This document shows, one piece after another, positions 5,785 through 10,156 of a stretch of DNA of 64,000 nucleotides (positions are counted from its first letter, which is position 1; every line of letters starts with the position of its first letter). The notes under the pieces are model-generated. The model was not told the origin of the DNA, did no database searches, and saw nothing but the letters and a program-made list of their open reading frames with translations. The DNA comes from an uncultured Clostridia bacterium (GTDB lineage: Bacteria > Bacillota > Clostridia > Christensenellales > UBA1242), in the NCBI GenBank assembly GCA_944360075.1, contig CALVTE010000002.1:14638-78637 (forward strand), read 5' to 3'. Made by a program: the position numbers and the translations under genes.

Positions 5785-6273
5785 TTAAAATTTTATTATA
5801 GGCACAATATGTGCAATCTTGTCTTTTTGAAGGGTAATCTGTTCTTGGTTTGCTTGTTTTCCCTTTTTGTCAGGCAAAGGTTTGATAGTAACCGTGTTTT
5901 GGTCAAATTCTACCAGCTCGCCTTCAAAATTTTTCACTCCGTTTTGTTTTGCAAAAAGAGTTACCGCGATTTCTTTGCCCAGATGTTTTTTTAAATCTTT
6001 GTCCGTTTTGAGCGGTCTGTCAATGCCGGGCGAGCTTACATTGAGAATATATGCTTGGTCGTCAGTCGGGTTAAGTTCGTCGAGAAGAGGGTCGATAGTT
6101 TTGCTGACAGCCTCGCAATCGTCGACGTCAATTCCACCATCCTTGTCAATAAAGAAAGTCAAATTCATGCCGTCTGTTTTTTTTGCGTATTCCACTTCCA
6201 CAACCTCGTAACCCATCCGCTCTATGACAGGAACGATTTTTTCTTCGCATAACGATTTGGTTTTGCTTGCCAA
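5785..6273 (-). CDS. rimP: ribosome maturation factor RimP
   Basis: 162 aa. TTG start 6 nt after AGGAGG. RimP-like LNVSSPGIDRPLK. Immediately upstream of nusA. Confidence 0.9.
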   Translation of the reverse strand: MASKTKSLCEEKIVPVIERMGYEVVEVEYAKKTDGMNLTFFIDKDGGIDVDDCEAVSKTIDPLLDELNPTDDQAYILNVSSPGIDRPLKTDKDLKKHLGKEIAVTLFAKQNGVKNFEGELVEFDQNTVTIKPLPDKKGKQANQEQITLQKDKIAHIVPIIKF

Positions 6274-6296
6274 TTTGTGCCTCCTTATCTATGAAG

Positions 6297-6327
6297 CAGG
6301 GAGTGAACAAAAACTGCTCACTCCCCG
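6297..6327 (-). promoter_or_regulatory. stable stem-loop in the rimP 5' leader
   Basis: Minus strand GGGGAGTGA-gcagtttttgt-TCACTCCCT, 20 nt upstream of the rimP RBS. No U-tract follows it. Confidence 0.35.
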
Positions 6328-6345
6328 CATCATCTAGTCAACCAT

Positions 6346-6374
6346 ATTTTAACACAAAACAAAGATAAAATCAA
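6346..6374 (-). promoter_or_regulatory. possible promoter of the rimP-nusA-infB operon (extended -10)
   Basis: Minus strand TTGATT-17 nt-(TGt)TAAAAT. Confidence 0.45.
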
Positions 6375-6387
6375 CTGTTTGATAAAA

Positions 6388-7920
6388 TTATTTTTTTATT
6401 TTGCAAAGTCCAAGCAGCACTTGTGCCGTTGCAAAAGCATCGTTATAGGCTCTATGCGCGCCTTCCAAAGTCAAACCTAGTGCCGAAACTATTGTGCCAA
6501 GCTTATAGTTTGCCAGCCTTAGCGAAGATGTTCTTGCAAGGATGAGAGTGTCGATGATTTGATTTTTGAAATGCAGCCCTGCTTTTTCAGCTGCTTTTTT
6601 GATAAACTTAAAGTCAAAACCTATAGCATTATGCCCGCAAAGCAAGCAACCTGTGCAAAAATCATAAAAATCATATATAACATCTTTTATCGAAGGAGCA
6701 TCTTTGACCATTTCGTTTGTGATATGAGTCAACTGTTGCACTTCTTGAGGAATAGAAATTGAAGGCTTTACAAAGCTTGCAAAACGCTCACAAATCACAC
6801 CGTCCACAACTTTGACGGCTCCGATTTCTGTGATTTCGTCATTTTCTGAGTCAAGACCAGTGGTTTCGATATCAAACACAACGATTGTTTTGCCGCGCAC
6901 AGTGTCGTTATAATCAATCTTTTTCTCAAAAAGTGATGACTGCTCTTCAATTTCGATTTTTTCAGGAAAAACCACCTGCTTATGCTGATAATCTTCTTCT
7001 CTTTGCGCTTGTTGACCTTCTTTTAGATGAGCCCACGACATTTTTCTTACATAATAAGTCAAATTGCCATTGAGACCGTAGTTGAGATCGCCAACGCACA
7101 ACACAGACATATTGTTTTCAAGGCTGTCCATCACCTTCTCATTGGTTTTCGAGCAAAAATAGACGCATTCAATTTTCGATCCGTCATCAAGAGTAAAGGT
7201 GTAAAGAGCTTTTTCTTGACCGGCACGTTTGCCCTTTTTTATAGTAAAGGTCTTTTTTGCAATGTTTGAGATGTTTCCAAACAAGATGACAGACTGCTTT
7301 GGTTTGTTGTTGTTTTTTATGTATTCAGGCTTTGGAGTAATCTCTCCACCGACGATTTTTTTTAGGATTTCCACCTGATAACGCTCAACTTTGTTTGAAG
7401 CAGTTGGCTCTAAATCGGGAGAATCAATTTGCTGAGGAAGGCTGTCCTCATTTGCCAGAAAAACAACAGAAAAGTTGGCTATAAATTTTTCGCTAAGATA
7501 TTTTATCAGACCAGTTTTAAGTTCTTGCTCATCCAGCATAGAAAGCACGTCTTGATTGATTTTGATTTGCACTGAAATATCGTAATCATCTTGTGTGATT
7601 GTGATGTTCTCGTCAAAAATGTAAGGAGCGACAGATTGTTTTTCAGATTTAAAAAACCGGCCTATTTCACGCCTTATCAAAACCTCGTCTAAAAAGCTTT
7701 TTTTGAATTTGACTTTAACATCGCAGTTGAACGAAAAGGTGTCTTTGATAAACTGCTCAATTTCTTTTCGGTCTTGCGGCTGCAAATCTTCGTGTGAAAA
7801 AGGGAACAAAAAAGTAAAAGTGCATAGGTTTGAATTTTTGTCAAAAAGCACTTCATATAATTTTAAAAAACTGTATTTATCGTCAAACTTTTTGTTGAGT
7901 TTTTGTAAAATCTCGTTCAT
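6388..7920 (-). CDS. PolC-like N-terminal/OB-fold/DnaQ-type 3'-5' exonuclease protein lacking PHP and polymerase domains
   Basis: 510 aa. C-terminal DEDDh exonuclease motifs: IVVFDIETTGL (ExoI), GHNAIGFDFKF (ExoII) and HRAYNDAFA (ExoIII). The central segment VILFGNISNIAKKTFTIKKGKRAGQEKALYTFTLDDGSKIECVYF resembles the PolC OB fold. The N-terminus resembles PolC NTD (NLCTFTFLFPF). Occupies the rseP-[polC]-rimP slot. Confidence 0.7.
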   Translation of the reverse strand: MNEILQKLNKKFDDKYSFLKLYEVLFDKNSNLCTFTFLFPFSHEDLQPQDRKEIEQFIKDTFSFNCDVKVKFKKSFLDEVLIRREIGRFFKSEKQSVAPYIFDENITITQDDYDISVQIKINQDVLSMLDEQELKTGLIKYLSEKFIANFSVVFLANEDSLPQQIDSPDLEPTASNKVERYQVEILKKIVGGEITPKPEYIKNNNKPKQSVILFGNISNIAKKTFTIKKGKRAGQEKALYTFTLDDGSKIECVYFCSKTNEKVMDSLENNMSVLCVGDLNYGLNGNLTYYVRKMSWAHLKEGQQAQREEDYQHKQVVFPEKIEIEEQSSLFEKKIDYNDTVRGKTIVVFDIETTGLDSENDEITEIGAVKVVDGVICERFASFVKPSISIPQEVQQLTHITNEMVKDAPSIKDVIYDFYDFCTGCLLCGHNAIGFDFKFIKKAAEKAGLHFKNQIIDTLILARTSSLRLANYKLGTIVSALGLTLEGAHRAYNDAFATAQVLLGLCKIKK

Positions 7921-7929
7921 ACCGACATT

Positions 7930-9111
7930 TTACAACACAAAATGCAAAATGTCAATCAATATGACAGCAGCAAACAAAACCAGCAAACCCACCGTGTGAA
8001 TCATGTTTTCAACTTCTCGCTTTATTGGTTTTTTTCGTATGCTTTCAATCATTGTAAACATCACATGTGAGCCATCGAGCGAGGGCAAAGGCAGAATATT
8101 GAACACTGCCAAATTGGCGGAAATAAGAGGAATTAAAATCAAAACATTTGCAAGGTTTGCTTGTGTGAATGAAGCAATCGTTTCAATGGTGGTCAAAGGT
8201 CCGCCTATTTGCGACAAAGGCAACTGGAAGGTGATAAGCAGCCACAAAGATTTAAGCACAATCCAAGCAAGACCAACGGCAAAAGGCACGCAACGCTCCA
8301 AGGCTTCCCAAAAGGTGTGAACATAGGCCTTTGCGCTTATACCAGTCGTGTAAATTGTTTCGCTTTCGCCAAGCTGATACTGCCCTGTTTGGCTGTCAAC
8401 AGACTTGATTGGAGAAAGAGTGACAACAGAAAAACCAGTATAAGCCGTTTGATACTGTCCATTTCGTCGAACTGTCAGCTCTAAAAGCGGATAATCTGCC
8501 ACGCTTGCATTGTTCTCTTCCGCCCACTTTTTGGCAGCATTTTCATGCTTTGTGATGGCGTCATTATAGTTAATTCCATAAGCAAAGTCGATTTTTTCGC
8601 CGTTTATGGCAAGAATGACATCGCCTTTTTGAAGACGCAAACTCTCTTCAAGGGTGAAAATTTTTGAATTTTGCTCAACTTTTGAAATTATATAACCATT
8701 TTGAGGCTGGTCTGAGGCAGTAGGATAGGCAAAGGAAACAACCTCTGGGATGTCATAGCCAATTGTGCAAAGCAGAATCAAAGAAAAAATTACGGCGGTT
8801 GCAAAATTGAAAGAAACCCCTGCCACAAACACCAAAATTCTTTTCCAAGGTGGCTGCGAGTTAAAACTATCTTTTCCATCACTGCTTTCTTCTTCGCCTT
8901 CAAAAGCACAGTATCCACCAAGCGGAAAAAGACGCAAAGAAATCAATTCTCCGCGTTTGTTTTTACGAGAAATAAGGGCTTTTCCAAACCCTACCGAAAA
9001 CTCTGTAATTTTAAAATTTAACATTCTTCCAATGCAATAATGCCCAAATTCATGCACCAAAACCATAAACAGCAAAATCACAATGGCAAGAATGATATAA
9101 AGCACAAACAT
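7930..9111 (-). CDS. rseP: RIP zinc metalloprotease RseP/RasP (M50 with PDZ)
   Basis: 393 aa. HEFGHY zinc motif in TM1, a central PDZ-like region, and NILPLPSLDGSH. Downstream of cdsA. Confidence 0.9.
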   Translation of the reverse strand: MFVLYIILAIVILLFMVLVHEFGHYCIGRMLNFKITEFSVGFGKALISRKNKRGELISLRLFPLGGYCAFEGEEESSDGKDSFNSQPPWKRILVFVAGVSFNFATAVIFSLILLCTIGYDIPEVVSFAYPTASDQPQNGYIISKVEQNSKIFTLEESLRLQKGDVILAINGEKIDFAYGINYNDAITKHENAAKKWAEENNASVADYPLLELTVRRNGQYQTAYTGFSVVTLSPIKSVDSQTGQYQLGESETIYTTGISAKAYVHTFWEALERCVPFAVGLAWIVLKSLWLLITFQLPLSQIGGPLTTIETIASFTQANLANVLILIPLISANLAVFNILPLPSLDGSHVMFTMIESIRKKPIKREVENMIHTVGLLVLFAAVILIDILHFVL

Positions 9112-9190
9112 TTGACCATCCTGTAATTTTATTTCAAACTTATCAGTATTATATTGTCAAAAAATTTTAAAAATACCCTGCAAAAATTTT

Positions 9191-10156
9191 TTATAAAACC
9201 AAAACAATGATGGCAAAGGCAATGAAAACAAAAGGCATCACAAACATATAAGAATCGCATCGATCAAGCATACCGCCATGGCCTGGCAAAAGCCTGCCGC
9301 TGTCTTTTACGTCGGCTTGTCTTTTGAACAAACTTTCTGTTATATCGCCAATTTGAGCAAGGATTGACCCGAGAAATGATATCACCATAACTTGCCAAAA
9401 CGCAAAACCTGTTTGCACAAAAACAGCTTTTAACTCTGGAATGGAATAGAGAATAAAATAGACTGCAACAGAGAAAAGAAGGCAAGCCAAACTTCCACCA
9501 ATAGCCCCCGAGATGGTTTTGTTTGGGCTGATTTTTGGGCAAAGTTTTTTACCGCCAAAAATTCCCCCAACAAGATAAGCAAAAGTGTCAGTAAAGATTG
9601 GAATTAAAAATGCAAACAGCAAGGCAATCAGCGATAGATAGCCTTCAAACTGCCCCACTTGCGCAAAGGAAGTGGTCATTTCGTCAAAGTGGTTTAAAAG
9701 CGACATAAAAATCAGCAAAAAGGAAGGATAGACAAAGCAAAAAGCCGTGTTCATTGCCTTTTTGAAGGCATAGTTTGACAGTGAGATGTTTAATTTTTTA
9801 TAACGAATTTCTTTGACAGATTTATCTTTTGTTATAAGAGTTGAAGTATAGCTGACAGCAAAGAAAATCACAATCAAAGAGATTAAAATCACGATGTTGT
9901 AAATTATGCCAATGGAAGAGTCAAAGGCGATGTTTAAAAGCACGGCCAGCATCAGAAATGCTGGAAAAATCGTTGCTAAAATTTTGTTGTTAGGCTTGTC
10001 CATTTTCGTCATCAATTTGCTCATTTCGTAGGCGCAATAGACAGAAATAAACAAAATCAAAGCATCAAAAAAGTATGGGCTTACATAACTTTTCAGCACA
10101 AACATGAGTGCCAAAACGGCCACAATCAAAATTGATGTCATAAGTCTTGTTTTCAT
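9191..10156 (-). CDS. cdsA: phosphatidate cytidylyltransferase
   Basis: 321 aa, polytopic. Signature SLFKRQADVKDSGRLLPGHGGMLDRCDS. ATGA overlap with uppS. Confidence 0.9.
   Translation of the reverse strand: MKTRLMTSILIVAVLALMFVLKSYVSPYFFDALILFISVYCAYEMSKLMTKMDKPNNKILATIFPAFLMLAVLLNIAFDSSIGIIYNIVILISLIVIFFAVSYTSTLITKDKSVKEIRYKKLNISLSNYAFKKAMNTAFCFVYPSFLLIFMSLLNHFDEMTTSFAQVGQFEGYLSLIALLFAFLIPIFTDTFAYLVGGIFGGKKLCPKISPNKTISGAIGGSLACLLFSVAVYFILYSIPELKAVFVQTGFAFWQVMVISFLGSILAQIGDITESLFKRQADVKDSGRLLPGHGGMLDRCDSYMFVMPFVFIAFAIIVLVL

Follow-up and report, generated by a model that had tools for sequence, protein, structure and literature searches.

A PolC-derived protein without a polymerase, a probable clamp-tethered exonuclease, occupies the polC locus in gut Clostridia of the order Christensenellales

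We analysed a 64,000-nucleotide stretch of DNA (the window) from an uncultured Clostridia bacterium of the order Christensenellales (GTDB UBA1242; GenBank contig CALVTE010000002.1, positions 14,638 to 78,637), in which the gene between rseP and rimP encodes a protein of only 510 residues. This open reading frame (ORF; 6388..7920, minus strand) begins with ATG, ends with a clean stop codon and is very probably what is left of a polC gene after loss of both PHP halves and of everything that forms the polymerase, the duplex-binding region and the C-terminus. Its product, hereafter the PolC remnant, keeps the PolC N-terminal domain (NTD), OB fold and DEDDh exonuclease domain (Exo), the OB fold and Exo being joined by a linker of about 40 residues that carries a QxxLF motif. 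The assignment of the whole ORF (510 aa plus stop) as a PolC-derived protein of NTD-OB-CBM-Exo architecture, where CBM stands for the clamp-binding motif, is based on the ORF itself, on domain searches and on homologues of the same length. The remnant is probably a clamp-tethered exonuclease of PolC origin that acts in trans beside DnaE1, and the lineages that carry it appear to replicate with DnaE1 alone, the remnant being kept as a separate exonuclease.

The Exo domain comprises residues 344-506 (6403..6891, minus strand) and was identified as a DEDDh 3'-5' exonuclease of the PolC Exo type from Pfam, from profile matches in the Protein Data Bank (PDB) and from its catalytic residues. Pfam RNase_T (PF00929) matches residues 347-502 with an E-value (E) of 5.9e-37 and 128 bits against a cut-off of 24, and the DEDDh catalytic residues D350, E352, D436, H489 and D494 are all present. 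With a profile of the family, the nearest chains of known structure in the PDB are the T. maritima PolC Exo (2p1j, E 2e-48) and the E. faecium PolC (9qpc, E 7e-36). The score of 99.7 bits on TIGR00573, with a cut-off of 71.5, places the remnant within the broad DnaQ/DEDDh family. Among NCBIfam models the best match is NF001688, the PolC equivalog, of which only positions 417-585, corresponding to the Exo insert, are matched (163.4 bits against 873); likewise, only positions 167-350 of the PolC model TIGR01405 are matched (144.3 bits against a cut-off of 1043). These scores and the lack of a PHP domain and polymerase core place the remnant outside the PolC equivalog family. It is homologous to the N-terminal half of PolC. 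Exo is the most conserved part of the family alignment, and all five DEDDh residues are invariant in 213 of 213 full-length members.

The remaining parts of PolC were searched for and not found in the remnant. Pfam detects no PHP or polymerase family at E<=1, the OB-Exo linker holds neither an H-x-H nor any other PHP motif, and palm, thumb, fingers and duplex-binding HhH are absent from the ORF, which ends about five residues after Exo, right after the Exo III motif, at ...LLGLCKIKK. There is no counterpart of the C-terminal tail with which epsilon-type subunits bind alpha, and the scores on TIGR01406 and PRK05711 are below their cut-offs. The original prediction for this gene, made from the sequence alone, described a complete DEDDh exonuclease and no PHP or polymerase sequence. 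The first statement is borne out by the RNase_T match and the five catalytic residues, the second by the Pfam and NCBIfam searches, and every string that it quoted is present (NLCTFTFLFPF at residues 31-41, VILFGNISNIAKK...VLCVGDL at 211-279, FDIETTGL at 349-356, GHNAIGFDFKF at 429-439 and HRAYNDA at 489-495).

The genome encodes one other DEDDh exonuclease, a 430-aa protein outside the window (C6:37722-38627; locus L001, 1462-2754). Its N-terminal DnaQ-like domain is followed by parts that, judged by eye, are BRCT-like and repeat-rich helical, and the protein is a candidate repair nuclease. Its match to the PolC model was considered as a possible piece of PolC and rejected, since the protein is an unrelated one of DEDDh-BRCT-like type.

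The region preceding Exo comprises an NTD (residues 1-160; 7441..7920, minus strand), a flexible linker (residues 161-180; 7381..7440, minus strand) and a pre-OB strand with an OB fold (residues 181-300; 7021..7380, minus strand). The AlphaFold2 model of the remnant has a mean predicted local distance difference test score (pLDDT) of 87, with values of about 85-92 in the NTD. The latter is modelled as two modules of alpha-beta-beta-alpha(-alpha)-beta topology. Module 1 is composed of a helix (2-11), two strands (20-27 and 32-40), a helix (48-62) and a strand (67-75), and module 2 of a helix (79-92), two strands (106-111 and 114-122), two helices (123-128 and 131-145) and a strand (149-157). 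The flexible linker is poorly conserved, with variable alignment columns and a pLDDT below 50 at residues 166-176. Conservation of the NTD extends over the whole family and includes a K-F-K-K-S-F-L-D motif; R180-Y181 and a P-x-P-E segment are conserved as well, the residues conserved around the pre-OB strand being R180-Y181, G191, P196 and P198-E199. Pfam gives two weak OB matches of the tRNA_anti type at residues 209-294 (E 7e-4).

The homology of this region to PolC could be detected only by profile-profile comparison and with a profile of the family. BLASTP against two PolCs from the same order aligned only Exo, with 45-48% identity, and gave no N-terminal match; single-sequence and HMMER comparisons with the PDB matched PolC Exo and not the N-terminus, and Pfam gave no PolC N-terminal family at E<=1. 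We compared residues 1-340 of 51 family members with the pre-Exo region of ten PolCs from the same order using hhalign. This comparison gave a probability of 98.2% and an E-value of 2.7e-14, with residues 5-302 colinear with PolC columns 10-332. The OB fold alone aligned to PolC columns 221-332 (probability 97.4%, E 1.3e-11), and the NTD alone, over residues 5-154, was colinear with PolC columns 10-159 (E 1.8e-4, probability 49%); controls with reversed sequences gave E-values of 0.038 (NTD) and 0.66.

We also searched 399 genomes of the class with a profile (A2) built from the N-terminal ~310 residues only, which contains neither the linker motif nor Exo. Outside the order it matches about 96 ORFs with E-values from 1e-5 to 3e-15, mostly of PolC size (~1220-1615 aa), the few shorter ones looking cut at contig ends. 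Three of the matched ORFs, together with one PolC from the order itself, were confirmed as PolC by more than 1700 bits on NF001688, and hmmsearch puts the matches at the PolC N-terminus (8-310 on 11-304, 17-308 on 19-301 and 13-260 on 29-276). When the full AlphaFold2 model was submitted to Foldseek, the top match was 9qpc (E 1.4e-18 over 388 columns). The N-terminal model was best matched by the OB domain of the G. kaustophilus PolC, 3f2b (E 7e-5, 106 columns, root mean square deviation 3.0), and the NTD model alone matched only generic alpha-beta-beta-alpha-beta modules. At the level of structure the NTD cannot be compared directly with that of PolC, because the PolC NTD is deleted or not resolved in every solved PolC structure, having been removed for the 3f2b crystal and being unresolved in 9qpc (PMC12592400).

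The gene also occupies the chromosomal slot of polC, which is marked by synteny with its two neighbours, rseP upstream (7930-9111, minus strand), ending 9 nt before the remnant gene, and rimP downstream (5785-6273, minus strand), starting 114 nt after it. The gene run in the window, all on the minus strand, is rpsB-tsf-frr-uppS-cdsA-rseP-X-rimP-nusA-ylxR-ylxQ-infB-rbfA-nrnA-truB, where X is the remnant. The order dxr-rseP-ispG-polC-rimP-nusA, with PolCs of 1397-1455 aa, is found in ten PolC-bearing genomes of Christensenellales, and the same order with a gene of 508-534 aa instead of polC is found in five genomes from other families of Christensenellales. The genus of the window has the slot arrangement of its relatives in the order, minus dxr and ispG. 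Because the gene order around both slots matches, the short gene is the positional orthologue of polC. The ORF list and the neighbours agree with the original prediction, which had located a 510-aa gene between rseP and rimP that closes cleanly 110 nt before the latter; the clean stop was correct, and the distance as measured is 114 nt.

Taken together, the N-terminal profile similarity, the polC slot, the PolC-type Exo and the existence of a conserved family with intact catalytic residues support the descent of the gene from polC by domain loss. This origin had been put forward in the original prediction, along with an N-terminus resembling the PolC NTD and a following OB-like segment, and these assignments now find support in the hhalign comparison, the A2 hmmsearch matches and the Foldseek match to the 3f2b OB domain. 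The alignment with PolC that it had suggested as a check was thus performed and reveals the N-terminal profile similarity whose absence it had named as grounds for rejection.

As for the neighbourhood itself, cdsA, rseP and the remnant gene are adjacent in the window's genus, and both genes of the methylerythritol phosphate (MEP) pathway are missing from the locus (7930-10156, compared with loci L012-L026). A locus without dxr and ispG, in genomes of 0.8-1.3 Mb, suggests loss of isoprenoid precursor synthesis.

The OB-Exo linker (residues 301-343; 6892..7020, minus strand) replaces the PHP-N segment of PolC and holds a conserved V-x-P-E and a candidate motif for binding the beta clamp. It is otherwise variable in sequence and is modelled with low confidence at residues 303-310 and 325-327; at 325-327 the pLDDT is below 50, as expected for a linear motif. 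The candidate motif, recognised from the translation and from family conservation, is QSSLF (Q327-F331; 6928..6942, minus strand), and the peptide around it reads EIEEQSSLFEKKI. All 46 sequences of the family alignment have Q327 and F331. Among the 213 full-length members, 202 have Q at position 1, 208 have L, I, M or F at position 4 and 194 have F at position 5. The strict pattern Q-x-x-[LIMFV]-[FWY] is found in 186 (~87%), about 20 residues upstream of the exonuclease; in most of the others the equivalent position is occupied by Q-x-x-[FL]-L or by x-x-x-[MV]-F. Even members of only 27-31% identity keep the motif about 20 residues before Exo I. The bacterial clamp-binding consensus is QL[S/D]LF or QxxLF, with positions 1, 4 and 5 as the most important ones, and the clamp motif of PolC itself consists of the last five residues of the protein (PMC12309361). 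QSSLF is likely a docking motif for the sliding clamp, whose gene, dnaN, is present in the genome (284 bits). Since the C-terminal region that harbors the PolC motif is gone from the remnant, the latter seems to have acquired a clamp motif at a new position.

The DnaE model TIGR00594 finds a single gene in the genome (1218 bits), which is its only C-family polymerase and which has an internal QxS[LIM]F clamp motif. We propose that QSSLF anchors the remnant in one of the two pockets of the DnaN dimer and that the second pocket is taken by DnaE1. The OB fold and NTD would hold the single-stranded template or another replisome partner, and the exonuclease would remove mismatched 3' ends released by DnaE1, adding to the PHP proofreader of that polymerase. 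A precedent for such a mechanism is the PolC Exo of B. subtilis, which has been reported to proofread DnaE in trans (cited in PMC12926913). From the conserved residues and motifs we infer exonuclease activity, clamp binding and action at the replication fork, and we give the specific role of a trans-proofreader within the replisome about an even chance.

Several observations weigh against this proposal. The DnaE of the genome and of all 18 relatives examined has a complete PHP signature (H-x-H...D, DH, E, H, C, D-x-H), and this HHDHEHCDH signature is intact in remnant-bearing and PolC-bearing clades alike, so that a second proofreader is not obviously required. DnaE1 shows no consistent clade-specific insertion or motif that could serve for docking, only three columns discriminating the two clades, and the remnant has no counterpart of the alpha-binding C-terminal tail of epsilon. 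About 13% of the 213 members are without the strict clamp motif, and a few lack the Q. Finally, the homology of the NTD to PolC, taken alone, is modest. By the criterion used in PMC12926913 the PHP proofreader of DnaE1 counts as 'active', and DnaE1 is judged to be of the type usual in Clostridia. The remnant as sole proofreader beside a dead DnaE1 PHP site was also considered, and was rejected on account of the intact signature in both clades.

In the DnaE genes compared (C7:38438-41674 in the genome of the window and loci L117-L124), DnaE1 measures 1160-1279 aa in most remnant-bearing genomes, 30-100 residues more than in PolC-bearing relatives (1148-1192 aa). The difference is in part an insertion after the PHP domain in the window's genus and in one other family, which is not found in all remnant-bearing families.

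The main alternative, which we regard as unlikely though realistic, is that the remnant is a clamp-associated exonuclease of repair or end processing, active in mismatch-repair excision, in removal of 3' flaps or blocked ends or in restart, and not a proofreader at the fork. The OB fold would then direct the protein to single-stranded gaps, and the clamp motif to clamps left on DNA. The intact PHP signature of DnaE1 fits such a function, as does the lack of both an alpha-binding tail and a co-varying feature in DnaE1. Moreover, QxxLF motifs are used by many repair proteins (PMC12309361), and the mycobacterial DnaQ has been described as not binding DnaE1 stably (PMC12926913). However, the remnant has kept the polC slot by the rimP-nusA-infB operon and a replicase-specific NTD through the history of the clade, its Exo is of the replicative PolC type and not of the ExoX, RNase T or DinG type, and the other DEDDh-BRCT exonuclease of the genome is a more obvious candidate for repair.

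It is improbable that the remnant is in the first place a structural part of the replisome, whose NTD and OB fold bind a partner still in need of them, such as the clamp loader, helicase, primase or single-stranded template, and in which the exonuclease is secondary. Conservation of the NTD over the whole family would agree with this, and the PolC NTD is dispensable for polymerase activity, which suggests an interaction role (PMC12592400). Against such a role stand the retention of every catalytic residue in all 213 members and the fact that Exo is the most conserved part of the alignment.

A very improbable explanation is that polC was split, relocated or lost in assembly and that the ORF is only its first piece. 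The assembly to which the window belongs (899 kb in 24 contigs) is 85% complete, which leaves some room for a missing piece. The PolC model matches three things in it, namely the remnant ORF, the 430-aa DEDDh-BRCT-like protein and, weakly, one DnaE of 1212 aa; the polymerase part of the model is matched by DnaE alone, and the same holds for 24 of 24 congeners and for 144 remnant-bearing genomes. No PolC was found in the 24 sampled genomes of the genus, many of which are 97-100% complete, and several 99-100%. In addition, the clean stop 114 nt before rimP lies on the same contig, and the arrangement recurs in five other families. The split or relocated polC that the original prediction had left as an option is therefore contradicted by the lack of a PolC-type polymerase half in all of these genomes. 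A misassembly hiding a full polC, which it had named as a way in which it could fail, is excluded by the absence of PolC across relatives, including a genome assembled as a single 1.8 Mb contig (G286), in which the remnant is present.

We then examined 301 genomes drawn evenly from Christensenellales. PolC scores over the cut-off in 137 genomes, with contig-broken copies in about 10 more, all of them in 24 families. The remnant is found in 144 genomes of 16 other families (N-terminal profile, E 1e-22 to 1e-115), mostly as ORFs of 500-560 aa, some being shorter as cut by contig ends and a few reaching ~714 aa. No family in this sample holds both PolC and the remnant, and about 10 genomes, mostly incomplete, have neither at the thresholds used. 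No strong remnant-type matches were found in other groups among the 399 genomes of the class. The genome search for polC and dnaE and the survey of NTD/OB/Exo proteins, both proposed with the original prediction, thus give no PolC and one DnaE in the genome, and a protein family spread over at least 16 families of the order. In an unrooted maximum-likelihood tree built from the DnaE sequences of ten genomes with PolC and nine with the remnant, one branch separates the two sets with a support of 100/100, which is compatible with a single truncation event. Because PolC is present in the other 24 families and across other Clostridia, its loss is the parsimonious direction; both the direction and the number of loss events are read from parsimony and from this unrooted tree.

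The family to which the remnant belongs is widely conserved. A search with the N-terminal 340 residues of the remnant alone gives 94 clusters of ~507-525 aa, with identities as low as 33%, and a profile limited to the N-terminus finds 829 clusters (50% identity clustering), of which 303 have E<=1e-30; the best 150 of the 829 are mostly ~500-550 aa long, the remainder being shorter fragments. These 94 clusters of the same length and the 829 clusters retrieved by the profile argue that the architecture is not a product of chance or assembly. As the catalytic residues are invariant and the family is widespread, the remnant is not a decaying fragment and is almost certainly under selection. A functionless pseudogene, for which one could cite genome reduction in the genus (0.8-1.3 Mb, with dxr and ispG missing from the locus), or an ancestral short form from which PolC arose by fusion, is hardly credible, given the conservation of length, domain order, catalytic residues and linker motif to ~27% identity over hundreds of clusters in the first case, and the presence of PolC in the other 24 families of the order and in other Clostridia in the second.

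The remnant was compared with known systems. It shares with PolC (NF001688/TIGR01405; 3f2b, 9qpc) the slot, the order of NTD and OB fold, the type of DEDDh exonuclease and a QxxLF motif. In contrast to PolC, it lacks palm, thumb, fingers, HhH and the C-terminal region, has no PHP segment before or after Exo and cannot polymerise DNA; its clamp motif lies in the OB-Exo linker, whereas that of PolC is at the extreme C-terminus. Like the epsilon subunit (DnaQ) of E. coli, it is a separate DEDDh exonuclease of an organism with DnaE1 only and has a clamp motif of weak consensus adjoining the nuclease, and one clamp pocket each is proposed for polymerase and exonuclease. Unlike epsilon, it is of PolC origin, has an additional 340-residue NTD and OB region, lacks the C-terminal alpha-binding tail and carries its clamp motif before the nuclease instead of after it; moreover, its DnaE1 partner, unlike E. 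coli alpha, has an intact PHP site. Given the missing tail and the different origin, the remnant is not an epsilon of the E. coli type.

In mycobacteria, a noncanonical DnaQ is reported to act together with the PHP proofreader of DnaE1 (as summarised in PMC12926913). The remnant resembles it as a second DEDDh exonuclease beside a PHP-intact DnaE1, for which stable binding to DnaE1 is not expected; the lineages and architectures are unrelated, however, and the mycobacterial protein has no PolC NTD or OB fold and does not lie in a polC slot. Some Clostridia with a single DnaE1 and no PolC were reported by Timinskas et al. in 2014 (PMC3919608), and the remnant lineage has the same polymerase complement, with the difference that the clade studied here consists almost entirely of uncultured organisms known from metagenome-assembled genomes. 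In that study fragments that lack the active site of a polymerase were removed, and no NTD-OB-Exo protein derived from PolC is described; PolCs without an integral exonuclease were found there only in clostridial genomes (PMC3919608). A 2026 survey of complete genomes distinguishes three replicase combinations and contains no such protein (PMC12926913). Our literature searches found no published description of a truncated or polymerase-less PolC.

PolC is regarded as the essential and defining replicase of low-GC Gram-positive bacteria. It is possible, although we would put it slightly below an even chance, that a large and almost wholly uncultured branch of gut Clostridia has rebuilt its replicase, with DnaE1 as sole replicative polymerase and the N-terminal half of PolC turned into a dedicated clamp-tethered proofreading subunit whose clamp motif has a new place. 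If so, these bacteria would have arrived independently, by fission, at the alpha-epsilon-beta arrangement of E. coli, and PolC would not be indispensable in Firmicutes. About half of a large gut-associated order of Clostridia is without the PolC polymerase and has long retained its proofreading front end. PolC is the target of antibiotics in clinical development such as ibezapolstat (PMC12592400); the rebuilt replicase would predict natural insensitivity to PolC-targeting antibiotics and thus a class of commensals spared by PolC inhibitors. These lineages would also provide a natural experiment on the parts of PolC that are needed apart from polymerisation, on a Firmicute replisome with DnaE1 only and on proofreading supplied in trans, and the function of the PolC NTD could be tested directly in a protein to which no polymerase is attached.

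A promoter-like element, TTGACA-17-TAAAAT (7927..7955, minus strand), is located in the last codons at the 3' end of rseP and matches the consensus at 11 of 12 positions. Its TAAAAT -10 overlaps the stop codon of rseP, the last base of the hexamer lying 7 nt upstream of the remnant ATG at 7920, and no Shine-Dalgarno sequence precedes this ATG. The element and its spacing are kept in the loci of relatives (L027-L030) down to 44% protein identity; against its being a promoter, the -35 sits within conserved rseP coding sequence. The remnant may be translated from a leaderless mRNA or by coupling to rseP.

On the other side of the gene, the 114-nt spacer before rimP (6274-6387, minus strand) contains a second promoter-like site with an extended -10, TTGATT-17-TG-n-TAAAAT (6346-6374). 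Directly before the AGGAGG of rimP, it also contains a perfect 8-bp hairpin, GGGAGTGA...TCACTCCC (~6299-6326), without a T-run. The spacer may act as a regulatory leader for the rimP-nusA-infB operon.

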